DNA of 64,000 bases from Leptospiria bacterium (lineage in GTDB: Bacteria > Spirochaetota > Leptospiria > Turneriellales > CBDBES01), in contig CBDHCY010000005.1 of assembly GCA_965261485.1 (NCBI GenBank), forward strand, positions 333,813 to 397,812. Reading direction: 5' to 3'. The position numbers and the translations under genes are program-made. Below the pieces are notes generated by a model that was given only the letters and a program-made list of their open reading frames with translations, had not been told where the DNA came from and did not search any database. Positions 3,091-48,326 of the stretch are shown piece after piece (positions within the stretch are counted from its first letter, which is position 1; every line of letters begins with the position of its first letter).

Positions 3091-4188
3091 TTGAATAAAA
3101 ATTTATATTCTCATAAAATTTTAGAACCAAGTAAGTATGGATATATTATCTTTTTTTTACTTTGTTGCTATATTTGTTTATCATTGGTAACATGCAATAC
3201 TTTTCACATTCCCAAAGATAATATTTTTATAAATAAAAGTAATTGGAAGAGACCTTCTTATAAGACTCTATTTTTACCTAGTAAATATGTAAATTTATTT
3301 TTACATGCCGAAAATTTTTCTCAGGGTAAGGCCGTTTATATTGAAATATTATTTGTTGAGATGCTTACAGAAGATAAAGTAAAAAATAAAAAAAAAAATA
3401 AAAAACTCGATTCTATTTATTTGAGTATTGGTAAAAAAAAAGGTTTAAAAATTATTTTAAGTTATATGGGGTGGGGGTATCGTGGTTTTTGGGGAATTCA
3501 TCCAAATGCTAAAATAGGAAATTATGATCTTACTTTGCGTTATCAATATAAGGGAAGTAAAGTTCAAAATATTTATCATATGAATATTACTCGAACTAAA
3601 TTTTCGACATATCGAAAAAGTAAGAAACTGAGTTTCTCTAAATATTCTAATGTTGATCAGAGCAAACGACAAAAAATTTATGATTTTATTATGTCATCAT
3701 CAAAGAAAAAAAAAGAAATGTTTCGTATATTAAATAAAACAACGATTAATAATATAATCGCTCATCCTAGAAATGAACACTTTATTACTTCTAAATTTTG
3801 GACAAAGCGAGTATATTTGAAATATCGAATTAAGAATAAAAAAAGAGTTTATTTAAAGCCAAAGATAAGTATGCATAGAGGGCTTGATCTTCATGGTTCT
3901 GTGGGTAAGCCAATATATGCAATGGCTTCTGGCAAGGTTGTTATTGCTGAAAAATTATATTTTGAAGGTAATTTTACCTTAATTAATCATGGGAGTCGTA
4001 TTTTTTCTGGCTACATGCATCAAAGTAAAATATTTGTGGAAGAAGGGGATAAGGTGGACGCTGGAGAAGAGATTGGTAGTGTTGGTTCAACTGGCCGTGC
4101 AACAGGACCTCATTTGCATATATTTTTTAAAATTGATGGTGTTTATGTTGATCCTTTGAGTTTAATTTCTTTACCCATTCGTTACTAA
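3091..4188 (+). CDS. M23 family metallopeptidase (LytM/NlpD-like)
   Basis: C-terminal HRGLDLHG...GxxxxHQS...GSTGRATGPHLHIFF matches the HxxxD and HxH zinc motifs of peptidase M23. TTG start and an N-terminal TM segment. Confidence 0.8.
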   Translation: MNKNLYSHKILEPSKYGYIIFFLLCCYICLSLVTCNTFHIPKDNIFINKSNWKRPSYKTLFLPSKYVNLFLHAENFSQGKAVYIEILFVEMLTEDKVKNKKKNKKLDSIYLSIGKKKGLKIILSYMGWGYRGFWGIHPNAKIGNYDLTLRYQYKGSKVQNIYHMNITRTKFSTYRKSKKLSFSKYSNVDQSKRQKIYDFIMSSSKKKKEMFRILNKTTINNIIAHPRNEHFITSKFWTKRVYLKYRIKNKKRVYLKPKISMHRGLDLHGSVGKPIYAMASGKVVIAEKLYFEGNFTLINHGSRIFSGYMHQSKIFVEEGDKVDAGEEIGSVGSTGRATGPHLHIFFKIDGVYVDPLSLISLPIRY

Positions 4189-5192: not shown

Positions 5193-6204
5193 GTTTGTAG
5201 TCTCTAGCCATTAATTCTACCAAAATCTGTTTTGGTGATTTCTGCTCATATAAAATTTTATAAACACCATCAATGACAGGAGTGCTCACTTTTTGATTTT
5301 TGCTAATAGTATAGGCACTTTTGGTTGTAGGAATACCTTCAGCAACCTGTTGCATCTCTTTTAAAATAGTATTAAATTGCATACCTTCAGCAATTTTTAT
5401 TCCAACGGTTCGATTTCTTGATAGGTTTCCTGTACAGGTGAGAACAAGGTCTCCCATACCAGCGAGCCCCATAAAAGTTATGGGATTTGCTTTCATTGTT
5501 TTTCCTAAGCGGGCAATTTCGGCAAGCCCTCTTGTTATGAGAGCGGCTTTTGAATTATTACCCATATTTAATCCGTCACTTATTCCACATGCAATAGCGA
5601 TTATATTTTTTAATGCTCCAGATAGCTCTACTCCAATAACATCGTCGGTACCATAAACTTTAAAGTAGTTAGATCTAAATATACTTTGTATTTTGATAAT
5701 TTTATCTTTTGCATATCCAGCCATTGTAACGGCTGTAGGAATTTGCTGAGCGATTTCTTGTGCAAAGCTTGGACCAGAGAGAAAGAATAATTGATTTTTA
5801 TAGTCTTTACCCAAAACATCCAAAAAAATATCGCATACTAATTTATTTGTTCCAATTTCAATACCTTTTGAACAAACCACAATAGGGATACCTTGTTTGA
5901 TGTGGTGTTTTGATCTCTCTAAAACTTCTCTAGTTACTTGAGTTGGAAGAACAAAAAGAATTATATTTGCTTGTAAAAGAGCTTTTACAAGGTCATTAGT
6001 TGAGCTTACAGTTTTAGGAAGTTTGAAGTGAGGTAGATATTGTTTGTTTTCATGGTGTTTATTAATTGAATCTGTTACCTCTTTATTGCGAGCCCAAATG
6101 AGCACATTGCATCCATTTTCTGCTATGAGTTTTGCTAACGACGTACCAAAGGAGCCAGAGCCTATGATTGCGACATTCACAATTCTACATTCATCCAATG
6201 TCAC
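5179..6204 (-). CDS. gpsA: NAD(P)H-dependent glycerol-3-phosphate dehydrogenase
   Basis: N-terminal VAIIGSGSFGTSLA Rossmann motif. GALKNIIAIACGISDGL and LSRNRTVG are hallmark GpsA motifs. Confidence 0.9.
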   Translation of the reverse strand: MTLDECRIVNVAIIGSGSFGTSLAKLIAENGCNVLIWARNKEVTDSINKHHENKQYLPHFKLPKTVSSTNDLVKALLQANIILFVLPTQVTREVLERSKHHIKQGIPIVVCSKGIEIGTNKLVCDIFLDVLGKDYKNQLFFLSGPSFAQEIAQQIPTAVTMAGYAKDKIIKIQSIFRSNYFKVYGTDDVIGVELSGALKNIIAIACGISDGLNMGNNSKAALITRGLAEIARLGKTMKANPITFMGLAGMGDLVLTCTGNLSRNRTVGIKIAEGMQFNTILKEMQQVAEGIPTTKSAYTISKNQKVSTPVIDGVYKILYEQKSPKQILVELMARDYKLETD

Positions 6205-7360: not shown

Positions 7361-9685
7361 TTATAGAAAAGTACCAATTGACTGGCCTAATTGAACAATT
7401 TGTTTTTCTTTTAGGTCGTGCCATTTTGCTTGTCCTGCTTCAATAAATAATATTACAGTGGAGCCCATCTCAAAACGAGCCAACTCTTCTCCCTTTTTTA
7501 TTGGTAAAGCCGTTTCATATTTATGCTCCTTGGCTGAACGGACCCAATTATTAGTATTTACAGTAGTATTATAAGCTAATTTGATATTACCAACATTAGT
7601 AGCAGCGATTTTGCTTAGGGCAATTAAGCCAAATTCTGTTTGGATGTATGTGGTCAAACGTTCATTTTTTGAAAATAAATTTGTAATTAAATTCACAGCA
7701 AATTCGTTGACGGGTAATAATCTGCCGGGAGAGTAAGAATGAGCGATAATCTCACCTGTTACAGGGGAATGAATTTTATGGTAGTCGACGGGGGCCAAAT
7801 AGATTGTCATCCATATTCCCTCTTTAAATTTTGCATGTAATTTGTGATTACTTAATATTTTTTTTACTTCAAGATGAATCCCTTTAACTTGAATCATTGT
7901 TCCTTTAGAAATTTTACCAAAATTTAAAATTCTGCCATCTACTGGAGATACAATAATCTGTTGTCGGTGGTCAATCTTTCTAATTCCTTTTTTTAAATTT
8001 CTGATAAAGAATGCATTGAGAGATGAATATTGTTTTAATGAAAATTCTGCCTCTTCAAGTTTTATTGAATATGTTTTAGAAAAAACTTTTAGAATAGGTA
8101 GCATTAAAAATTTAGGAAATTTAAATCTAGCAAAATAGCCAAAAAGTCTTGATATTAAATTTTTAGGTATGATATATAAAAAAATTAAATAAAATTGAGA
8201 GAATAGATCAAAACGCTTATGGTGTTGATATAAAAAATCTTTTGTTTCTTTAACAACAACATAGGACAGTAGAGATATGGCCACTAAATTTGGAAGTGCC
8301 ATAAAACCATTTGCTATATCTGAAAAAAGCCATATTAGGCTTATCTCAGAAGTATATGCTCCCATAAATGTGAGTGATATCCATAAAATACGGTAGTATA
8401 AGGAATATTTTTGTAAACCTAGATAGATGAGTGCTCGGTCAGAATAATAAAACCAACCAATTATTGTTGAAATTGAAAAGAAAATAATTCCCCATGTTAC
8501 GATAGTTTTTCCAAATCCTCCTAAATAGTGATGAAAAACGGAAGAAACCAAAACATCTTGTATATTTTCTGCCTGAGTTCCCCAGTGATTAATGATTCCT
8601 GACCAAACAGATGGAAATTCTGTTAAAATACTGGGTAAAGTAGAAGTCATTTCTTTTGCAATTGGCAAACTTTTTGAAGTAACAGCTTTACTTAATATCG
8701 CGCTAGGGTTTTCTTCTATTCCAATCAATATAACAAAGGCTGTTAGAGTGCAAATAATAATTGTGTCAATAAAAGGGCCTAACATAGAGACGAGACCCTG
8801 CTGACTCGGGTGAGTTGTTTTTGCTGCGGCGGCGGCAATGGGAGCTGAGCCTAGACCTGCTTCGTTAGAGAAAAGTCCTCTTTTGATGCCTATCATTATA
8901 GAAGTTTGCCAAAAGCCAATTGAAGAACCTATGATTGCTGGTAAGGGTTCGAAGGCAAATTTTAAAATCATTGAAAATATTGTAGAAATACTTTCTATAT
9001 TTTGACCAATAATATATAACGAACCCATGAGGTAAAAAATCCCCATGAAGGGTACAATAATACTGGTAACTCTACCAATTCGACGAATACCTCCTAATAT
9101 TACTAAGCCTGTAACAGTGGAAATCAGTAGAGCACTTAACCCTCGTGGGATTTTCCAATGGGTTGAATAAAGTTCCCCAGCTACTGCATTTGCCTGAGTC
9201 ATATTTCCGATGCCCAATGCTGCTATTAATGTGCTCAAAGCGAAAAAGATGGCTAACCACTTCATGTGCAAGCCTTTTTCGATATAATACATGGGGCCTC
9301 CTGAAAATCCGAAAGGTGTTGATTCCCTATATTTTACAGCGAGGAAACATTCACTATACTTCGTAGCCATTCCTAAGAGAGCTGTTATCCACATCCAAAA
9401 AACAGAGCCTGGGCCTCCAATTAAAATGGCACCGGCAACACCGACAATATTACCAATACCAATAGTCGCACTCAAGGAAGTTGTGAGTGTCTGAAAATAG
9501 GAAATATCTCCTTCTATTTTTTTATTTTTGTTTGATTTAAAACCGCAAGTAATGCGAAAGGCCAAATAGAGATAACGAATTTGTATGAAAGCCAAACGGA
9601 GGGTCATAAAAGCACCAAGACCAATGAGAATAAATACAGTGGGCTTGCCCCAAATATAGCTTGATATCTCTTTTAAAATTGTCAT
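7361..9685 (-). CDS. fusion protein: alanine/glycine:cation symporter (AGCS family) N-terminal part plus phosphatidylserine decarboxylase C-terminal part
   Basis: Residues about 1-485 are a polytopic AGCS-like transporter (GIGNIVGVAGAI, GLFSNEAGLGSAPIAAAAAKT). Residues about 490-774 carry PSD motifs (VSPVDGRI, YLAPVDYHKIHSPVTGE, and FEMGSTVILF containing the GST self-cleavage site). One uninterrupted ORF. Confidence 0.75.
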   Translation of the reverse strand: MTILKEISSYIWGKPTVFILIGLGAFMTLRLAFIQIRYLYLAFRITCGFKSNKNKKIEGDISYFQTLTTSLSATIGIGNIVGVAGAILIGGPGSVFWMWITALLGMATKYSECFLAVKYRESTPFGFSGGPMYYIEKGLHMKWLAIFFALSTLIAALGIGNMTQANAVAGELYSTHWKIPRGLSALLISTVTGLVILGGIRRIGRVTSIIVPFMGIFYLMGSLYIIGQNIESISTIFSMILKFAFEPLPAIIGSSIGFWQTSIMIGIKRGLFSNEAGLGSAPIAAAAAKTTHPSQQGLVSMLGPFIDTIIICTLTAFVILIGIEENPSAILSKAVTSKSLPIAKEMTSTLPSILTEFPSVWSGIINHWGTQAENIQDVLVSSVFHHYLGGFGKTIVTWGIIFFSISTIIGWFYYSDRALIYLGLQKYSLYYRILWISLTFMGAYTSEISLIWLFSDIANGFMALPNLVAISLLSYVVVKETKDFLYQHHKRFDLFSQFYLIFLYIIPKNLISRLFGYFARFKFPKFLMLPILKVFSKTYSIKLEEAEFSLKQYSSLNAFFIRNLKKGIRKIDHRQQIIVSPVDGRILNFGKISKGTMIQVKGIHLEVKKILSNHKLHAKFKEGIWMTIYLAPVDYHKIHSPVTGEIIAHSYSPGRLLPVNEFAVNLITNLFSKNERLTTYIQTEFGLIALSKIAATNVGNIKLAYNTTVNTNNWVRSAKEHKYETALPIKKGEELARFEMGSTVILFIEAGQAKWHDLKEKQIVQLGQSIGTFL

Positions 9686-12318: not shown

Positions 12319-12364
12319 ATATAGTTTTGTGAGCATAGGTTGGCAATGTAGCCATTAAAAAAGG

Positions 12365-12391
12365 TTGACAATATCTGCAGTATATTAGAGT
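12365..12391 (+). promoter_or_regulatory. candidate sigma70-type promoter of GLUG paralogue 1
   Basis: TTGACA at 12365-12370 and TAGAGT at 12386-12391 (15-nt spacer, suboptimal). The same arrangement is retained in all three duplicated units. Confidence 0.3.
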
Positions 12392-12430: not shown

Positions 12431-15013
12431 ATGCATTTTTGGAGAGGTAATCAGATGAAACAAATGAAACAAATGAAAAAAAATAAATATTTAAGCTTTG
12501 GGTGCTTTATTTTTAACTATTTTTCCAAAATTAATTTTAGTAGTAGAGTATGCATTTTAGTTATTTTAAGCTCTCTATTTTTACCCTTTTGTGCCGGAGG
12601 CTCAGAAGATCCCGGTACTAAAGTAGTAGATCCCGGTACTAAAGTAGTAGACCCCGGTACTAAAGTCGTAGACCCCCCACCGGGGGGGCCAGAGACAATC
12701 ACCAAAGTAGGCGTTCAATCATATTTTTGCACGAATGGTGTCAAAAAAGATCCTGTGAATCTAGCAGTAGCTAGTGCTTCCACCCCTGATAAACAGGGCT
12801 GTGCGAGCTGTGATCGGCACTATCGTGTAGCAAGTGGCTCCTTCTTAGATGATGGTAGCACTTGTGTGGCTCGTACTTGTGCGGTAGAGGGAGAAGAGCC
12901 ATGTTCAACTTGTTATGCCGGCTCTGTGCGTAGTGGTCATACATCCGACGGGTTGCCTACCTCAGTTCCTTCTGAGAGTACGTGTGTTCAAGTTGATAGT
13001 GATAATAATAAACTTATTGATATAACAACGCTCACTCAATTACATAATATGAGGTATAATCTTGCGGGAACCTCTTATAAAACAGATGCATCCACTGTGG
13101 CTGGGGAGTGCGGCACCTATGGCGATGCCGACGGTATCTATGAGATTGCTTCAGATAGCTGTATAGGCTACGAGCTTATGAATGACTTAAACTTTGATTC
13201 TGATGATCAGGATGATGATAGTACTTACACGCCTTCTACAACCGGAGGAGTAACAACTTATATCCTAGATAATGATGATAATGCTGCACCTTATTTTGTA
13301 GTAACAGGGGTAACAGATAATGGCGTCACTAGTTACAGTGGTGGTTGGGATCCAATTGATGATTTTGCAACTACCTTTAATGGTAATGATAATACTATTA
13401 CTGGTCTTGCTATTAGTCGTGGTGATTCTGATGATACTCGTATTGGTATGTTTGGTACTATAACAGCTGATGCAATGATCCATAATATTAATTTAAATTA
13501 CAATCTGTCTGAATATACTGGCTCAGCAACAGATGATGTTCAAATTGGTGGTTTGGTGGGGTTTAGTTTGGGCACTATTACTACCAGTTCGGTCATTGAT
13601 GGGAAGGTTAGGAGTCCTGCTCTTGCAGGTGGTTTAGTGGGTTTCCAACAGGGCAAAAAAATTAATGCCTCTATTGGTATTGCTACTGTTAGTGGTAGTA
13701 TTGCCGGTGGTTTAGTAGGTCAGTCGATGGATAGCCAAATTGCGACTAGTTATGCTACTGGTGATGTTAACGGCGGAACCGGTGATAATAAATTAGGTGG
13801 TTTAGTGGGTCAGTCCATTAATAGCAAAATTAGAATTAGTTATGCTACTGGTGCTGTAATAGGCGGGGCTGGTGCTGATCACTTAGGTGGTTTAGTGGGC
13901 GAATCTGAAAATAGTCAAATCATCACTAGTTATGCTACTGGTGCTGTAACAGGCGGGGCTGGTGCTGATCGCTTAGGTGGTTTAGTGGGCGAGTCTATAA
14001 ATAGCCAAATTATCGCTAGCCATGCTACTATTGGTGCTATAACTAGTGAGGCTGGTGCTAATTACTTAGGTGGTTTAGTGGGTAATTTTGAAGTTCTAAA
14101 TAAGGCGAATAATAATAAGAAGGGTATTATTGTCGCTAGTTATGCTACTGGTGCTGTAGCTGGCGGAATCGGTACTGATGGGTTAGGTGGTCTGGTTGGT
14201 CAAATTTGGATTACTGGTGATACTACTGTTAGTAATCCTCGTCCTGTTAGTGAAGTTATTGTCACTGTTATCGCTAGTTATGCCACTGGTAATTTAATGG
14301 GTGGTGATGCGAGCGATAACTTAGGCGGCCTAGTGGGTTATGTTGATGACAATTCTAGTGAAAAGGTTACTATTACTGCTAGTTATGCTACTGGTGCTAT
14401 AACTGGTGAAGGTGGTCAAGATACGTTAGGTGGTCTGGTAGGTTACTTTGGGGATAAGTCTTCTGTTGTCCTTACGAAGGCTCACATTACTGCGAGTTAT
14501 GCTAATAATGTAGAGCTTACAGATGATACTGATCCGCTCCAACATCTGGGCTCGTTAGTAGGTAATTTAAGTAATGGAAACGTTCAGATTACTGATAGCT
14601 ATGGTTTTGCCACTCTTGAAGGAGGTACTAATCCTCAAATTGCTACATTTGCAAATGAAGTTGGGGATTTAGTAGCTGTAGGTGTCACTCCAAGTGGTGT
14701 CAGTGCTGCAGCTGATTTAACCCTTACAACGGCTATTACTACCGTTACTGATGCTTCAGATACAAATGCTATTAGTAGGAAAGATACTACATTAGGGGAA
14801 ATATGGAATAAGGCTAAACTGAATACTCTTGGTGCTTGGTTCTTTGAGACGGGTGTCGCTCCTACACTCAAATTTAATGATTACGATGGTCCTGTTGTTG
14901 GTACTACTGGCGATGTTTATAGTTGCTCCCCCTCTGACAATTACTTCACGATCACCATAGGGAGCAACACTATCGACACCATGCGTTCTTGTGGTGGTTC
15001 GATAACACAGTAG
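12431..15013 (+). CDS. GLUG-repeat surface lipoprotein, tandem paralogue 1 (probable true start is ATG 12455, after GGAGAGG)
   Basis: Signal peptide ending LFLPFC-AGGS (loose lipobox). Cys-rich N-domain, then a IDITTLTQLHNMRYNLAG core. At least 12 repeats of about 28-31 aa of the form GGLVG....I..SYATG.V.G....D.LGGLVG, which I recall as the GLUG motif family. Confidence 0.7.
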   Translation: MHFWRGNQMKQMKQMKKNKYLSFGCFIFNYFSKINFSSRVCILVILSSLFLPFCAGGSEDPGTKVVDPGTKVVDPGTKVVDPPPGGPETITKVGVQSYFCTNGVKKDPVNLAVASASTPDKQGCASCDRHYRVASGSFLDDGSTCVARTCAVEGEEPCSTCYAGSVRSGHTSDGLPTSVPSESTCVQVDSDNNKLIDITTLTQLHNMRYNLAGTSYKTDASTVAGECGTYGDADGIYEIASDSCIGYELMNDLNFDSDDQDDDSTYTPSTTGGVTTYILDNDDNAAPYFVVTGVTDNGVTSYSGGWDPIDDFATTFNGNDNTITGLAISRGDSDDTRIGMFGTITADAMIHNINLNYNLSEYTGSATDDVQIGGLVGFSLGTITTSSVIDGKVRSPALAGGLVGFQQGKKINASIGIATVSGSIAGGLVGQSMDSQIATSYATGDVNGGTGDNKLGGLVGQSINSKIRISYATGAVIGGAGADHLGGLVGESENSQIITSYATGAVTGGAGADRLGGLVGESINSQIIASHATIGAITSEAGANYLGGLVGNFEVLNKANNNKKGIIVASYATGAVAGGIGTDGLGGLVGQIWITGDTTVSNPRPVSEVIVTVIASYATGNLMGGDASDNLGGLVGYVDDNSSEKVTITASYATGAITGEGGQDTLGGLVGYFGDKSSVVLTKAHITASYANNVELTDDTDPLQHLGSLVGNLSNGNVQITDSYGFATLEGGTNPQIATFANEVGDLVAVGVTPSGVSAAADLTLTTAITTVTDASDTNAISRKDTTLGEIWNKAKLNTLGAWFFETGVAPTLKFNDYDGPVVGTTGDVYSCSPSDNYFTITIGSNTIDTMRSCGGSITQ
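12608..12670 (+). repeat. 3 x 21-bp in-frame tandem repeat (DPGTKVV) directly after the lipobox Cys
   Basis: GATCCCGGTACTAAAGTAGTA occurs three times (third unit has 2 substitutions). Paralogue 2 has a single unit. Confidence 0.9.
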
Positions 15014-15196: not shown

Positions 15197-15261
15197 ATAT
15201 AGTTTTGTGACTATAGGTTGGCAATATAGCCATTGAAAAATATTAATATTTCTAAAAAAGA

Positions 15262-15288
15262 TTGACAATCTCTACAGTAAATTAGGAT
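15262..15288 (+). promoter_or_regulatory. candidate promoter of GLUG paralogue 2
   Basis: TTGACA at 15262-15267 and TAGGAT at 15283-15288 (15-nt spacer). Homologous position to 12365-12391. Confidence 0.3.
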
Positions 15289-15349: not shown

Positions 15350-18166
15350 ATGAAACAAATAAAAAACAATAAATATTTAAGCTTTGGGTACTTTATTTTT
15401 AACTATTTTTCCAAAATTAATTTTAGTAGCAGAGTATGCATTTTAGTTATTTTAAGCTCTCTATTTTTACCCTTTTGTGCCGGAGGCTCAGAAGATCCCG
15501 GTACTAAAGTCGTAGACCCCCCCGTAGTAGCCCCCCCCACCGGTGAACCAGAGACAATCACCAAAGTAGGCGTTCAATCATATTTTTGCACGAATGGTGT
15601 CAAAAAAGATCCTGTGAATCTAGCAGTAGCTAGTGCTTCCAGCCCTGATAAACAGGGCTGTCAGAGTTGTAATGCACGCTATCGTATAGCAAGTGGCTCC
15701 TTCTCAGATGATGGTAGCTCTTGTGTGCGTCGTACTTGTGCTGATAATGGTGATGATGCTGTTGCTCCTGCTGCTGTTACTGCTCTTGCCGGATCTCCTT
15801 TGGCATGTCCTCGAGTGACTAGTTCGCCTAATACCTACGATGGCTGTTATTTCGACTATATGCGTAGTGGTCATGAACCCGCATCCGAGGGAATGCAGGG
15901 TAAACCCACTGAAGAACTTTATAATAGTGAGTGTGTTCAGGTTGATAGTGATAATGATAAACTTATTGATATAACAACACTCACTCAATTATATAATATG
16001 AGGCATAACACTTTTGGAGACTTTTATCACGTAGCTACCTCAACTGCAGCTGGAGCGTGCGGCAGCTACGGTGGTGCCGAGGGTGATGTATATACTCGTG
16101 CAGCTTGTGCTGGCTATGAGCTTATGAATAACCTAAGCTTTGATAAAAATAAGAATGGTATTACTTACGATAGCAATGGTCTAGATCCAGGTGATGATGC
16201 CGTACCTTATTTTGTAGTAGATTCTACTGATTCTAGTAATATTATTGGTGGTTGGGAGCCAATAGTTAATTTTGCAAGTACCTTTGATGGTAATGGTAAT
16301 ACTATTACTGGCCTTGCTATTCGTAAGACTAGGACTGGTACTGGTACTGGTACTGTCAGTATTGGTATGTTTGGTTCTATAAGACATGCACCAGCACGTT
16401 CTGCAGTGATTCGTGATATTAATTTAGTTGATAATCTAGCTGAATATTATTCAGCCCCAAGTACAGCTCCAAGTGGTCGTATTCATGTTGGCGGTTTGGT
16501 AGGTACTAGTCTTGAGAACGTTATTACTGGAAGTAATAGTGTGGGCACTATTACCGGAAGTTCTACCAGTGGAGAGGCTAAGGGTCCTTTTGCTACAGGT
16601 GGTTTAGTAGGCTTCCAAGAGGACTTAAAAATTGAAAGTAGTCATGCTACTGGTTCTGTGAGTTATGTTAGTAGTTCTGCTAATTTCTTTGGAGGTGGTT
16701 TAGTAGGGCGTTCTAAGAATGGCAAAATTATCACTAGTTATGCTTCTGGTGCTGTAACAGGCGGGGCTGGTGATGATCGCTTAGGCGGTTTAGTGGGCGA
16801 GTCTCTAAATGGCCAAATTATCGATAGTTCTGCTACTGGTACTGTAACTGTAACTGTAACAGGTGGGGCTGGTAGTGATTACTTAGGTGGTTTAGTAGGG
16901 CGTTCTAGGAATGGCGAAATTATCACTAGTTTTGCTACTGGTGCTGTAACAGGTGGGGCTGGTGATGATCTCTTAGGCGGTTTAGTGGGCGAGTCTAAGC
17001 TTAATAGCCAAATCATCACTAGTTATGCTACTGGTACTGTAAGAGGTGCGGCTGGTAATGATTACTTAGGTGGTTTAGTGGGCAAGTCTTCCAGTAGCCA
17101 AATTATCGATAGTTTTGCTTCTGGTGCTGTAACTGGTGGGGCTGATAATGATAAGTTAGGTGGTTTAGTGGGCGAGTCTCTAAATAGCCAAATCATCGCT
17201 AGTCATGCTACTAGTGATGTAACAAGCGAGGCTGGTGCTAATTACTTAGGTGGTTTAGTGGGTTATTTTAAAGTCGATCTAACGAAGAGTGGTACTATTG
17301 CCGCTAGTTATGCTATTGGTGCTGTAACTGGTGGAGCCAATATTGATCGTGCCGGTGGTCTGGTTGGTGATATTATAGCTCAACTTGATGGTATGGGGGG
17401 GAGTACTAATGGGGCTGTCACTGTTATCGCTAGTTATGCTACTGGTGCTGTAAGTGGTCTTGCTGACGATGATGTTTTAGGTGGTCTGATTGGTCGTATT
17501 GATAACACTACTATTCCTCCTGGTAATACAGGTCAAACTCATGGGGGGAGTTCAGTTGTCTTTACTGCCACTTATGCTACTGGTGCTGTAACTGGTGGTG
17601 CTGGTTCAGATAGCTTAGGTGGTCTGATAGGTATTTTAAATGGGGCTGCCATCATTGCGAGTTATGCTACTAACAGTGGGGGGCTTAATGCTGCTAGCGG
17701 TAGCAGGCAGTTTGTTGGTCGGTTAGTAGGTATTCCAGGTACTCCTCGGATTACTGAGAGTTATGGTTTTACGGTACCTACAGGTATTGATGCTGATGAG
17801 GCTAATGTAGGTATAGCACCAAATGGTATCGCTGCTGCAACTGGTTTAACCTCTGCTGGTTTAATCTCTGCTATGGTTGGTAATGCAGGTGATAAATGGG
17901 ATAAGGTTGTTGCATTTGTTCCCCCCGAGCAGGGGAGCAGTACGGGTACAGCCGCTATTCATACTTCTGGTGCTTGGTTCTTTGGGACGAGTGCCGCTCC
18001 TACACCCCAATTTAATGATTACGATGGTCTTGCTGCTGGTACTACTGGCACTATTTATAATTGCTCCGCTCCATCCACTCCAGCTATGAATTTTTTCGAG
18101 ATCAAGCTTCCAAATATCGATAAGATCACAACCACACGTTCTTGTGGTAGTTCGATAACGCAGTAG
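15350..18166 (+). CDS. GLUG-repeat surface lipoprotein, tandem paralogue 2
   Basis: The first ~105 residues are near-identical to paralogue 1 apart from the post-lipobox repeat/linker segment (signal peptide, LFLPFC lipobox, ETITKVGVQSYFCTNGVKKDPVNLAVASAS). It has a divergent Cys-rich region and more than 14 GGLVG/SYATGAVTGGAG repeats. SD GAAGAGG lies 7 nt before the ATG. Confidence 0.7.
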   Translation: MKQIKNNKYLSFGYFIFNYFSKINFSSRVCILVILSSLFLPFCAGGSEDPGTKVVDPPVVAPPTGEPETITKVGVQSYFCTNGVKKDPVNLAVASASSPDKQGCQSCNARYRIASGSFSDDGSSCVRRTCADNGDDAVAPAAVTALAGSPLACPRVTSSPNTYDGCYFDYMRSGHEPASEGMQGKPTEELYNSECVQVDSDNDKLIDITTLTQLYNMRHNTFGDFYHVATSTAAGACGSYGGAEGDVYTRAACAGYELMNNLSFDKNKNGITYDSNGLDPGDDAVPYFVVDSTDSSNIIGGWEPIVNFASTFDGNGNTITGLAIRKTRTGTGTGTVSIGMFGSIRHAPARSAVIRDINLVDNLAEYYSAPSTAPSGRIHVGGLVGTSLENVITGSNSVGTITGSSTSGEAKGPFATGGLVGFQEDLKIESSHATGSVSYVSSSANFFGGGLVGRSKNGKIITSYASGAVTGGAGDDRLGGLVGESLNGQIIDSSATGTVTVTVTGGAGSDYLGGLVGRSRNGEIITSFATGAVTGGAGDDLLGGLVGESKLNSQIITSYATGTVRGAAGNDYLGGLVGKSSSSQIIDSFASGAVTGGADNDKLGGLVGESLNSQIIASHATSDVTSEAGANYLGGLVGYFKVDLTKSGTIAASYAIGAVTGGANIDRAGGLVGDIIAQLDGMGGSTNGAVTVIASYATGAVSGLADDDVLGGLIGRIDNTTIPPGNTGQTHGGSSVVFTATYATGAVTGGAGSDSLGGLIGILNGAAIIASYATNSGGLNAASGSRQFVGRLVGIPGTPRITESYGFTVPTGIDADEANVGIAPNGIAAATGLTSAGLISAMVGNAGDKWDKVVAFVPPEQGSSTGTAAIHTSGAWFFGTSAAPTPQFNDYDGLAAGTTGTIYNCSAPSTPAMNFFEIKLPNIDKITTTRSCGSSITQ

Positions 18167-18354: not shown

Positions 18355-18417
18355 ATATAGTCTTGTGAGCATAGTTCGGCAATGCAGCCATTAAAAAAGA
18401 TTGCCAGTATCTAAAGA

Positions 18418-18445
18418 TTGACAATATCTGCAATATAATTAGAGT
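18418..18445 (+). promoter_or_regulatory. candidate promoter of GLUG paralogue 3
   Basis: TTGACA at 18418-18423 and TAGAGT at 18440-18445 (16-nt spacer). Homologous to the other two units. Confidence 0.3.
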
Positions 18446-18509: not shown

Positions 18510-20795
18510 ATGAAGCAAATGAAAAACAATAAATATTTAAGCTTTGGGTGCTTTATTTTTAACTATTTTTCCAAGATTAATAGTAATTTTAATAGTAAAA
18601 TATGTATTTTAGTTATTTTAAGCTCTCTATTTTTACTTTTTTGTGGTGGAGGCTCCAAAGTAGCCGGCCGCAAAATAGTCAGCTCCGAAGTAGCCCATGA
18701 ACAATCATATGTTTGTACGAATGGTACCCCAAAAGAATCTATTACTTTACCAATAGGTATGGATCCCGTTGCTGATAAAAAGAGTTGCAATAGATGTGAT
18801 GTACACTATCGTGTAGCAAGTGGCCCAGAACTTACTGAGGTTGGTAGCACTTGTGTGACTCGTACTTGTGCGGTAGAGGGAGAAGAGCCATGTTCAACTT
18901 GTTATGCCGGTTTTGTGCGTAGTGGTCATACATCCGACGGTATGTCTACGTCAGTTCTTTCTGAGAGTACGTGTGTTCAGATTGATAGTGATAATGATAA
19001 ACTTATTGATATAACAACACTCACTCAATTACATAATATGAGGAATAATCTCGCTGGAACCTCTTATAAAACAGATGCATCCACTGTGGCTGGGGAGTGC
19101 GGTACCTATGGCGATGTCGAGGGTGAATATACTACAGCTTTAGGTAGCTGTATGGGCTATGAGCTTATGAATGACCTAAGCTTTGATACTGATACAGATG
19201 GTACTCACGACAGCGATGGTCTAGATACGGCTGATAAAAATTTAGTTTATTTTCCAGTAGGTTCTAATAAGGATGGTGGTTGGGAGCCAATAGTTGGTTT
19301 TGCAACTACCTTTAATGGTAATGGTAATACTATTACTGGCCTTGCTATTCGTCGTCCCAGTGCTCGTATTGGTATGTTTGGTAATATAACAACTGATGCA
19401 GTGATCCGTAATATTAATTTAGCTGATAATCTAGCTGAATATTATATCGTCTCAGGAAAAAATATACCTAACAGTGTTCATGTTGGCGGTTTGGTGGGTA
19501 ATAGTAAGGGCACTATTATTGGAAGTTCTACCAGTGGAAAGGCTAAGGGTCCTCTTATTACAGGTGGTTTAGTAGGCTTCCAAAAGTCCTTAAAAATTGA
19601 AAGCAGTCATGCTACTGGTACTGTGAGTTATATTAGTAGTTCTACCACTCCTACAACTAATTTCTCTGGAGGTGGTTTAGTAGGGCGTTGTAATGCTGGC
19701 AAAATTATCACTAGTTCTGCTACTGGTGCTGTAACAGGTGGGGATGGTAAGGATCTCTTAGGTGGTTTAGTAGGGCGTTTAGTTGAGAATGGCGAAATTA
19801 TCACTAGTTCTGCTACTGGTGCTGTAACAGGTGGGGATGGTAATGATCAGTTAGGTGGTTTAGTGGGCGAGTCTCTAAATAGCCAAATTATCACTAGTTC
19901 TGCTACTGGTGCTGTAACAGGTGGGGATGGTACTAATTACTTAGGTGGTTTAGTGGGTAATTTTAGGGTCGATCGTGATAAGAGTGGTATTATTGTCGCT
20001 AGTTATGCTACTGGTGCTGTAACAGGTGGAGCCGATGTTGATAATGCCGGTGGTCTTATAGGTCGTATTGAGACTCTGCGTACTGGAAGCGTGATTTTGG
20101 GAGGAGTTGCTTCTATTGTTACTGTTATAGCTAGTTCTGCTGCTGGTGCTATAATTGGTGATGCTAGTGACGATTTTTTAGGTGGTCTGGTTGGTAATGT
20201 TGATGGGGACTCTGGTAAGCGAGTTACTATTACTGCCAGTTATGCTACTGGTGATGTAACTGGTACTGGAAGTGGTGGTACTAATTCTGATGTTTTAGGT
20301 GGTCTGGTAGGTTTTTTAGGGGGATCTAGCAAAATTATTGCAAGTTATGCTAATAATAATAACCTTCTTCCTGGTGGCGGCGGTAATCAAGGTTTTGGTA
20401 GCTTAGTAGGTTCTGGTTCTGGAGCTGACCGGGTTATTGAGAGTTATGGTTTTTTTTCATTTAGTAGTGGTACACCAAATTTACTTGGTGGTACACCATC
20501 AAGTAGTATCACTACTGCAGCTGGTTTAATCTCTGCTACCTCTGGTAATGCAGGTGTCAAATGGAATCAGGTTACTCCCGCTACTGCTACTGAGCCTGCT
20601 ATTCATACTCTTGGTGCTTGGTTCTTTGAGACGGGTGTCGCTCCTAAACTCCAATTTAATGATTACGACGGTGGTGGCACTGTTTATAGTTGCTCCTCTT
20701 CTGGAAATTATTTTACGATCACCATAGGGGGCAACGATATCGAAACCACGCGTGTTTGTAGTACTGAAGATAATCCGAGTCTGATAACACAATAG
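18510..20795 (+). CDS. GLUG-repeat surface lipoprotein, tandem paralogue 3
   Basis: Signal peptide with LFLLFC-GGGS. The Cys-rich and LIDITTLTQLHNMRNNLAGTSYKTDASTVAGECGTYGD region is nearly identical to paralogue 1. GGLVG repeats are present, and the C-terminal LGAWFFETGVAP.L.FNDYDG is shared with paralogue 1. Confidence 0.7.
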   Translation: MKQMKNNKYLSFGCFIFNYFSKINSNFNSKICILVILSSLFLLFCGGGSKVAGRKIVSSEVAHEQSYVCTNGTPKESITLPIGMDPVADKKSCNRCDVHYRVASGPELTEVGSTCVTRTCAVEGEEPCSTCYAGFVRSGHTSDGMSTSVLSESTCVQIDSDNDKLIDITTLTQLHNMRNNLAGTSYKTDASTVAGECGTYGDVEGEYTTALGSCMGYELMNDLSFDTDTDGTHDSDGLDTADKNLVYFPVGSNKDGGWEPIVGFATTFNGNGNTITGLAIRRPSARIGMFGNITTDAVIRNINLADNLAEYYIVSGKNIPNSVHVGGLVGNSKGTIIGSSTSGKAKGPLITGGLVGFQKSLKIESSHATGTVSYISSSTTPTTNFSGGGLVGRCNAGKIITSSATGAVTGGDGKDLLGGLVGRLVENGEIITSSATGAVTGGDGNDQLGGLVGESLNSQIITSSATGAVTGGDGTNYLGGLVGNFRVDRDKSGIIVASYATGAVTGGADVDNAGGLIGRIETLRTGSVILGGVASIVTVIASSAAGAIIGDASDDFLGGLVGNVDGDSGKRVTITASYATGDVTGTGSGGTNSDVLGGLVGFLGGSSKIIASYANNNNLLPGGGGNQGFGSLVGSGSGADRVIESYGFFSFSSGTPNLLGGTPSSSITTAAGLISATSGNAGVKWNQVTPATATEPAIHTLGAWFFETGVAPKLQFNDYDGGGTVYSCSSSGNYFTITIGGNDIETTRVCSTEDNPSLITQ

Positions 20796-47881: not shown

Positions 47882-48326
47882 TAACTGATGCGAAAAAAAT
47901 AAATTTTTTGAAGAAATAAATGGAGAAGAGAACTCCTCTTTATTTATTTCTAAAATTGTTTGTTCTTGTTTTATATTTTTTTCTTGATCAGCTATACTTT
48001 GAATTTCTTGCCACTCAAAAGGTGATATTTTTTGAAAAAATGGAGGCGGAGACGAGGTATTCTTAATAGAATACCCCCTTATTTAGTAATCTCTGCCATA
48101 AGACTATAAAATTAAAAATGACTGTAAAATTTTTTTTTTTTTGATTTTTTATTTTTTAAAAAAAAATTTGAATAATTATTCATGTACTCAATTAAATTCG
48201 GTAAATTTTAATAATTGAATAGCATAAAAAGATTGACAAGTTTAGAATATTTAAATTCTTTGAAGAGATGGTGTTTAGATACCCAGATGAAGCAATGGTT
48301 CATTCTTTTCTATTATAGAATATTGT

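Follow-up and report, generated by a model that had tools for sequence, protein, structure and literature searches.

Short G/C tracts behind the export signal of tandem surface-protein genes: candidate translational switches in an uncultured spirochaete

Can a G/C homopolymer of six to eight nucleotides, placed shortly behind the export signal of a surface protein, turn the synthesis of that protein on and off? The question is raised by three tandem genes for predicted GLUG-repeat surface proteins, paralogues 1 to 3, in a 64-kb stretch of DNA (34.9% GC) from a spirochaetal, Leptospira-like chromosome; this whole stretch is called the window below. Paralogues 1 and 2 carry short poly-C and poly-G tracts near their 5' ends, and the original prediction had taken these for slipped-strand ON/OFF switches in lipoprotein genes. 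The LeuA protein of the window is 56–58% identical to Leptospira proteins and 60–63% identical to proteins from metagenome-assembled genomes (MAGs) named 'Spirochaetia bacterium', and because of these identities the source organism is assigned, by sequence, as an uncultured spirochaete near Leptospirales. It is probably host-associated.

We suggest, with a probability of about 0.55, that the tracts are slippage-prone homopolymers in a hypervariable segment encoding the tether that links the export signal and its Cys to the folded beta-helix, and that they act as a translational ON/OFF switch. The anatomy of the genes, the stops met after a frameshift and the indirect comparative evidence fit the predicted switch, while tract-length heterogeneity and reversible switching are the parts of it that we infer.

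Tracts, reading frames and codon choice

The three genes and the tracts are as follows.

12455-15013, plus strand: paralogue 1, 852 amino acids, with signal peptide and putative lipidation Cys46 (12590-12592), predicted GLUG-repeat beta-helix surface protein
15350-18166, plus strand: paralogue 2, 938 amino acids, with putative lipidation Cys43 (15476-15478), predicted GLUG-repeat surface protein
18510-20795, plus strand: paralogue 3, 761 amino acids, signal peptide as in paralogues 1 and 2, short linker (CGGGSKVAGRKIVSSEVAHEQSYVC), no G/C tract
12673-12678, plus strand: C6 tract of paralogue 1, whose homologue in paralogue 2 is the C8
12682-12688, plus strand: G7 tract of paralogue 1, read CCG GGG GGG, homologous to GGTGAA of paralogue 2
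15517-15523, plus strand: C7 tract of paralogue 2, read GAC CCC CCC
15531-15538, plus strand: C8 tract of paralogue 2, read GCC CCC CCC, the longest G/C run of the window
17395-17401, plus strand: G7 tract in the C-terminal third of paralogue 2, where a frameshift would truncate the protein at about 685–700 amino acids

The 5' leaders and signal-peptide coding regions of the three genes are almost identical, and the 852-amino-acid open reading frame (ORF) of paralogue 1 is the exact product annotated on the source chromosome. The coordinates and lengths originally given for the four 5' tracts (C6, G7, C7, C8) proved exact in every case, and paralogue 3 is, as had been said, free of tracts, with no G/C run of five or more nucleotides before 20319, that is, in its first 1.8 kb. 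In paralogue 1 the codons GAC CCC CCA CCG GGG GGG encode D73-P-P-P-G-G78, and in paralogue 2 GAC CCC CCC GTA GTA GCC CCC CCC encode D56-P-P-V-V-A-P-P63, so placed that the tracts lie 13–32 codons downstream of the putative lipidation Cys (Cys46 and Cys43, respectively). When each of the four 5' tracts was changed in silico by ±1 or ±2 nucleotides, every product ended at codon 58–106; a ±1 change gave 84 or 106 amino acids for C6, 58 or 65 for C7, and 72 or 65 for C8. The predicted truncation just after the signal peptide is thereby borne out in silico, and restoration of the frame by the reverse change follows arithmetically. Three traits of contingency loci are found together here: a 5' coding position (codons 73–78 and 56–63), the consequence of a frameshift, and over-representation given codon usage.

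The last of these traits comes out clearly when the tracts are compared with the rest of the window. All four G/C runs of seven or more nucleotides lie within paralogues 1 and 2, and 10 of the 13 runs of six or more lie within three genes of the surface-protein family. The runs are built by synonymous codon choice. CCC accounts for 15.5% of Pro codons and GGG for 8.9% of Gly codons in the other genes of the window, and outside the paralogues none of 16 Pro-Pro pairs is written CCCCCC and none of 77 Gly-Gly pairs GGGGGG. The codons that precede the runs, GAC, GCC and CCG, are also the rarer synonyms, and they lengthen the runs further. Random synonymous back-translation of paralogues 1 and 2 led us to expect 0.18 runs of at least seven nucleotides, as against the four observed, and recovered the linker pattern in 0 of 20,000 trials. 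Clustering and codon choice are both well beyond chance, although, as the tracts of paralogues 1 and 2 are homologous, they represent fewer than four independent events.

The tracts stand in the segment from the lipidation Cys to the first Cys of the mature domain, which varies more than any other part of the family and is built of repeats. Two tandem repeats in paralogue 1 were found with Tandem Repeats Finder, and both are also seen in the alignment of the paralogues.

12455-12482, plus strand: 9-nucleotide repeat ATGAAACAA, 3.1 copies, at the start codon of paralogue 1 (MKQ-MKQ-MK)
12607-12676, plus strand: 21-nucleotide repeat, 3.3 copies (score 119, 95% matches), encoding DPGTKVV three times after the Cys

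The first repeat gives paralogue 1 three in-frame ATGs, where paralogues 2 and 3 have one unit each; the second runs into the C6 tract and is present as one unit in paralogue 2. Other members of the family vary in the same manner. In a sister strain, L076, one paralogue has DPGPKVE twice in its linker and another has an 18-nucleotide GNGEPG unit about six times, and further paralogues on the source chromosome have a DSMNP unit in one to three copies.

The tracts themselves appear to have slipped. From the shared GTAG to the shared ACC there are 7 nucleotides in paralogue 1 (A+C6) and 8 in paralogue 2 (C8), so that the ACC is read in different frames in the two genes; from the ACC to CCAGAG there are 7 nucleotides in paralogue 1 (G7) and 6 in paralogue 2 (GGTGAA). 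The alignment shows two 1-nucleotide indels between paralogues 1 and 2, located exactly at the two tracts and compensating each other; by implication there was once an intermediate with a broken frame, which a second slippage rescued. The sequence shows a linker shaped by repeat slippage. We also considered whether the tracts form a conserved RNA structure and rejected the idea: the C6 and G7 of paralogue 1, with ACC between them, are self-complementary and fold into a 6-bp G-C hairpin (12673-12688; -16.9 kcal/mol, z=-2.5), which has no counterpart in paralogue 2.

Each gene has a conserved box containing TTGACA about 85 nucleotides 5' of its start codon, located by pattern search (three matches against 0 expected) and by alignment of the three paralogues.

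12361-12382, plus strand: TTGACA-containing box upstream of paralogue 1
15258-15279, plus strand: TTGACA-containing box upstream of paralogue 2
18414-18435, plus strand: TTGACA-containing box upstream of paralogue 3

As each has its own conserved box, each paralogue appears to be its own transcription unit; scans of the paralogue region for sigma-70 promoters and terminators returned only background levels. Upstream of paralogue 3 the box is doubled by a 17-nucleotide duplication (AAAGATTGACAATATCT twice, 18396-18429).

We propose that during replication a C or G run would gain or lose a base, and the ribosome would then run out of frame. Translation would stop within 2–30 codons, leaving only the signal peptide and a stub, as the in-silico products indicate, and the beta-helix protein would not be exported, which is the OFF state. 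A second slippage in the same or a neighbouring tract would restore the frame, and with it the ON state, a step with which the compensated pair of indels is consistent. With promoter-like boxes of their own, at least three and possibly at least nine copies could switch independently, and a population would then show varied combinations of them. The proposal further supposes that slippage at tracts of 6–8 nucleotides would be frequent enough to matter and would be selected for.

The protein family and its relatives

All three paralogues match the Pfam GLUG model PF07581, with 58.6, 82.7 and 43.7 bits for paralogues 1, 2 and 3 (cutoff 20.5) and E-values of 4e-16 for paralogue 1 and 8.5e-24 for paralogue 2. 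In an AlphaFold model of paralogue 3, residues of about 260–650 are predicted to form a regular right-handed beta-helix, mostly at a pLDDT (per-residue model confidence) above 90. The best Foldseek matches, all of them weak, are to beta-helix modules of IgA1-protease-like proteins: 3n6z, a putative IgA1 protease (E=1.3e-3), and IgA1 proteases of streptococci. An identity as IgA1 protease, a zinc metalloprotease, was rejected, as neither Pfam nor NCBIfam places a protease domain in the proteins, which have no more than the beta-helix module in common with it. Searches with the paralogue proteins gave no match by sequence in the PDB and no match to an NCBIfam model. Members of the family share an N-domain, D-x-D-G-LIDI...LHNMR.NL.G.Y...GYEL...GGW.PI...F.GNG.TI.GL.

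The signal peptides have clear n- and h-regions, and the Cys is followed by AGGS or GGGS. A lipobox is typically [LVI][ASTVI][GAS]-C, with looser forms in spirochaetes, and the residue at -1 of the Cys is here a non-canonical Phe (LPF-C, LLF-C). The designation of paralogues 1 to 3 as lipoproteins in the original prediction is thus probable but not secure, because Phe precedes the Cys, although the leader and the Cys-Gly-Gly context fit. Surface exposure, localisation and function of the family proteins are presumed from the signal peptide with its Cys, the GLUG beta-helix and the membership of a multigene family.

Further copies are present in the window and beyond it. Two distant members of the family lie downstream of the paralogues.

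34429-36414, plus strand: distant family member with the same N-domain and C-terminal motifs as the family, no G/C tract
39372-41390, plus strand: distant family member with canonical lipobox FGASC, G6 at 39593-39598 in the linker after the lipobox (MPGPGGVE) and C6 at 40073-40078

These two members flank a YhgA-like Transposase_31 gene at 37733-38782. On the source chromosome (a contig of 2,133,161 bp) there are at least six further paralogues, P0001-P0005 and P0018. One of them, P0003, is intact, and the other five (P0001, P0002, P0004, P0005 and P0018) are annotated from an internal Met (MNPD...), at a point that falls directly after the position of the signal peptide and Cys in P0003. These five may be out-of-frame, that is OFF, copies.

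The closest comparison is with the sister strain L076 (ENA ERZ26693861, contig ctg127418_2x_l), which is syntenic with the window (rsmI, family genes, leuA), its LeuA being 99% identical and its flanks about 95% identical at the DNA level. Its first paralogue can be aligned with paralogue 2 codon by codon, and the sole difference that breaks the frame is C10 in place of C8: L076 reads GTA GTA G-C10-ACC AAT AAA CCA GGT and the window GTA GTA G-C8-ACC GGT GAA CCA GAG. The frame from the ATG stops after 80 amino acids, and the mature domain goes on in a different frame, where a 704-amino-acid ORF was called separately. At the site of the C7 of the window, L076 has C6 followed by T. The C10 is what an OFF allele would look like, and it is suggestive as such, on a contig that is probably covered 2x. 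Of 922 homopolymers in the flanks of L076, 915 match the window in length, including 29 of 30 A/T runs of at least seven. When a profile of the N-terminal 80 amino acids was used to search for out-of-frame signal-peptide ORFs, the 80-amino-acid ORF of L076 was the only one found, and scans of JGI metagenomes with protein patterns and with a 28-nucleotide conserved signal-peptide sequence gave no match.

Much longer tracts are found in a related spirochaete, L077 (LeuA 75% identical, 14x coverage, 50% GC). Members of the GLUG family are absent from the leuA loci of the relatives L077, L079 and L080; beside its leuA-ilvBN genes, L077 carries, on the minus strand, three lipoprotein genes that are paralogues of one another and belong to another family (Pfam 'Decapeptide' match), each with a poly-C tract.

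15261-15276, minus-strand gene: C16
16870-16890, minus-strand gene: C21
18762-18782, minus-strand gene: C21

The leader of these genes reads MKVNKIKNM...FGFLAGC, and the poly-C starts 1–3 codons after the LAGC lipobox. The C16 copy is in frame, as a 464-amino-acid ORF with five prolines in a row. Both C21 copies are out of frame, with a 41-amino-acid leader ORF and a body that is called separately, and loss of one C would restore each of them.

Distant homologues of the GLUG family were collected from species-representative genomes (75 loci, 469 kb), mostly MAGs, many of which have sponge-specific names. These loci contain 14 G/C tracts of at least 15 nucleotides, against about 0.01 expected from composition, and 13 of the 14 stand at the 5' end of a family gene. 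They range from 15 to 26 nucleotides and occur in Latescibacterota, Dehalococcoidia (Chloroflexota) and Spirochaetia. Positions are given by locus, for tracts of at least 15 nucleotides unless a shorter length is stated.

L005, 1799-1821
L007, 1331-1345
L010, 2905-2920
L013, 2874-2896
L014, 1178-1193
L018, 1929-1943
L025, 2874-2896
L031, 1874-1897
L038, 1793-1811
L049, 2879-2896
L056, 2880-2899
L058, 2816-2841
L074, 772-788
L002, 1854-1864, shorter tract, C11
L060, 2891-2899, shorter tract, C9

The tracts are not all placed alike. In Latescibacterota, C15-C23 stand between a conserved 110-nucleotide leader and the ribosome-binding site, with C9 in a second Latescibacterota MAG; one Dehalococcoidia genome has G16-G24 placed 1 nucleotide before the ATG; and another Dehalococcoidia genome and a Spirochaetia MAG have C11-C26 in the N-terminal coding region, before a hydrophobic leader. 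Tracts of this last kind leave L005, L007 and L058 in frame and L002 out of frame. Tract lengths (C15-C23, G16-G24) vary between paralogues whose flanks are conserved, and length differences of this kind read as the signature of slippage. Taken together, the sequences point to a recurrent association of the family, and of lipoprotein genes of the spirochaete lineage generally, with 5' G/C homopolymers, of which those of the window are the shortest.

The genes that neighbour paralogues 1 to 3 are the housekeeping genes rsmI, leuA, ilvB and ilvN. Elsewhere in the window the rRNA genes are dispersed, with a 16S gene at 31061-32592 that has no adjoining 23S and a lone 5S gene about 10 kb off at 42233-42349; scattered rRNA genes are known from Leptospira. 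On the minus strand, 7361-9685 is one 774-amino-acid ORF that joins an AgcS-type amino-acid carrier (residues 12–484) to a phosphatidylserine decarboxylase (508–773), by gene fusion or through a missed stop, and its counterpart in L076 is broken by three 1-nucleotide insertions. The longest A/T runs of the window are A11 at 3388-3398, A11 at 45316-45326 and T13 at 48130-48142. The first lies inside an ORF (3091-4188), 297 nucleotides from its start, and the other two are intergenic.

Weighing the proposed switch against its rivals

A number of observations weigh against a switch in the window. All three copies there are in frame, that is ON, and tracts of 6–8 nucleotides are at or below the usual prediction thresholds and at the low end for phase variation. 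Base composition alone leaves the excess of runs of at least seven marginal: a first-order Markov model expects 1.4 of them per 64 kb where four are observed (p ~0.06), and a run of at least eight occurs in 24% of simulations. The earlier statement that such runs are improbable in an AT-rich genome was on these figures overstated for a single tract. In a relative, L079 (LeuA 76% identical, 32x coverage, 39% GC), there is a C9 at 2142-2150 near the 3' end of rplI and a G7 at 5988-5994 in gyrA, so that G/C runs of 7–9 nucleotides are not confined to surface-protein or contingency genes in the lineage. Paralogue 2 itself has runs far from its 5' end, the G7 at 17395-17401 being followed by G6 at 17543, G6 at 17678 and C6 at 17921, and the family may merely tolerate G/C runs. 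A closer relative, L078, has GLUG genes without a tract, a comparison that is uninformative since their N-terminus differs. As for L076, the name of the contig suggests 2x coverage, and the C10 could be an error. Comparison with 7776-32329 of the window reveals about a dozen uncompensated 1-nucleotide indels in L076 housekeeping genes, its 16S gene has two 1-nucleotide insertions, including in a universally conserved motif, and its second family paralogue has in-frame stops. These indels and stops could reflect low-coverage error or a decaying genome.

Many of these points would be expected if the runs were simply left over from a Pro/Gly tether that is built of repeats and drifts by slippage, with frameshifts being deleterious and purged. 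This is the main rival of the switch, and we consider it unlikely but worth serious attention. It would account for the in-frame tandem repeats in the linker of every copy and for linker lengths from 21 to 57 amino acids, for the three intact copies of the window, for the runs of 6–7 in the C-terminal part of paralogue 2 and in the housekeeping genes of L079, and for the marginal excess over base composition. It is hard to reconcile with the choice of GAC, GCC, CCC, CCG and GGG, all of which lengthen the runs against a strong genomic codon preference, or with the compensated frameshift, which implies that frame-broken states lasted until they were rescued. Drift is also hard to invoke for tracts of 15–26 nucleotides that stand at equivalent sites in relatives, both ON and OFF. 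A more doubtful proposal is that an ancestor had a single long poly-C directly behind the lipobox, which in this AT-rich lineage has been broken up and cut down to C7...C8 or C6+G7, so that the genes are by now in effect locked ON with a slightly raised rate of frameshifts. The C16-C21 at the equivalent place in L077, the mere GTAGTAG that separates the two runs of paralogue 2, the C6+T of L076 at the site of the C7, seen as an interrupting substitution, and the complete loss of the tract in paralogue 3 would all suit such decay. The L077 genes belong to another protein family, however, so that homology of the tracts is only presumed; the C10 of L076 suggests that expansion is still possible, and the purity of the runs at the codon level is still high.

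The encoded peptide could also be what matters, with the nucleotide runs incidental: DPPPGG, DPP and APP might form a rigid polyproline spacer or a pause site dependent on elongation factor P (EF-P) that acts once the signal peptide has just emerged. Pro-Pro-Pro, Pro-Pro-Gly, Asp-Pro-Pro and Ala-Pro-Pro are strong ribosome-stalling motifs, and the five prolines of the in-frame L077 copy would fit as well. We nevertheless think this explanation very improbable, as it leaves the exclusive use of the rare codons CCC and GGG unexplained, along with the tracts in the 5' untranslated leaders of Latescibacterota and the out-of-frame copies. Slighter still is the chance that the tracts of the window are an artefact of sequencing or assembly. 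Long-read consensus sequences err mainly in homopolymers, but the three ORFs run intact through the tracts (852, 938 and 761 amino acids), and the tracts recur at homologous sites in the independent L076 assembly.

The translational switch therefore has to be considered on two scales. For the window it is the reading we prefer, as stated at the outset. More tentatively, and at somewhat less than even odds, we suggest that the tracts of the window are the AT-rich-genome version of a wider association of 5' G/C tracts with GLUG beta-helix surface proteins of symbionts in at least three phyla. The family spans Spirochaetota, Latescibacterota and Chloroflexota/Dehalococcoidia, and its tracts may stand in the leader, upstream of the signal peptide or downstream of the lipobox. 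If this wider reading is true, animal-associated symbionts would generally rely on stochastic ON/OFF or volume control of surface proteins, which has so far been documented chiefly in pathogens, and they could use it, for instance, as a defence against phage or against phagocytosis by the host.

If the tracts do switch, the spirochaete would vary at least nine large surface proteins, and the family would do likewise in unrelated symbiont phyla with far longer tracts. There would then be a read-level way to test how symbionts manage recognition by host cells and phage. A warning for annotation also follows: where such MAGs seem to contain 'N-terminally truncated' members of the family, these may be genes in the OFF phase and not pseudogenes.

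Comparison with known systems

Phase variation by repeat slippage is textbook knowledge for the pathogens Neisseria, Campylobacter, Helicobacter and Treponema, and to our knowledge there is hardly any record of it from uncultured symbionts of marine animals. The searchable literature yielded no paper that connects phase variation with the GLUG family or with symbionts of sponges, and the cross-phylum pattern of tracts appears to be undescribed in it.

Neisseria Opa CTCTT repeats, Helicobacter pylori outer-membrane proteins and Mycoplasma variable lipoproteins all exemplify repeats in the N-terminal or signal-peptide region of adhesin families, and they share with the window a multigene set of surface proteins, an OFF state that leaves a leader peptide, and combinatorial expression. 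They differ from the window in that its repeat stands after the lipobox Cys, is a homopolymer and not a pentamer or dinucleotide, and precedes a GLUG beta-helix fold. The contingency genes of Campylobacter jejuni, together with Neisseria hmbR/hpuAB and pgtA, resemble the window in having an intragenic 5' G/C homopolymer and a surface or host-interaction function, in reaching a premature stop upon a ±1 change, and in comprising several independently switching loci per genome (PMC8355987, PMC3786947, PMC2193922). Their tracts are usually 8–13 nucleotides or longer and are shown to vary, whereas those of the window measure 6–8 nucleotides and belong to a spirochaete.

Short 5' tracts are also known from single loci. 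The 5' poly-A of Listeria inlA is a short homopolymer through which the gene is reversibly inactivated (PMC2831843), and homopolymer tracts of Mycobacterium tuberculosis such as that in glpK undergo reversible frameshifts (10.1101/717272, PMC10334774). Both resemble the window in having 5' tracts of about 7 nucleotides, with reversible frameshifts at rates far above point mutation. They differ from it in being single loci of other organisms, where the window has a tandem family of surface proteins.

Promoter or leader poly-C tracts are present in the fim genes of Bordetella. A tract of the same placement, the poly-C of Neisseria opc, is cited in a study of Treponema pallidum (PMC7864442). This arrangement matches the Latescibacterota homologues, where C9-C23 stand between the leader and the ribosome-binding site, and not the window itself. 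A spirochaetal precedent is Treponema pallidum: its poly-G tracts (7–11 nucleotides; tprE/G/J/L promoters and tp0126) vary within isolates in vivo (PMC7864442). It shares with the window the association of G/C homopolymers with genes for outer-membrane proteins. Its tracts are mostly promoter-borne and transcriptional in effect, whereas those of the window are intragenic and would act by frameshift. By analogy with these systems, the working principle in the window would be that of classical translational phase variation at an intragenic homopolymer, placed in a new lineage and a new protein family.

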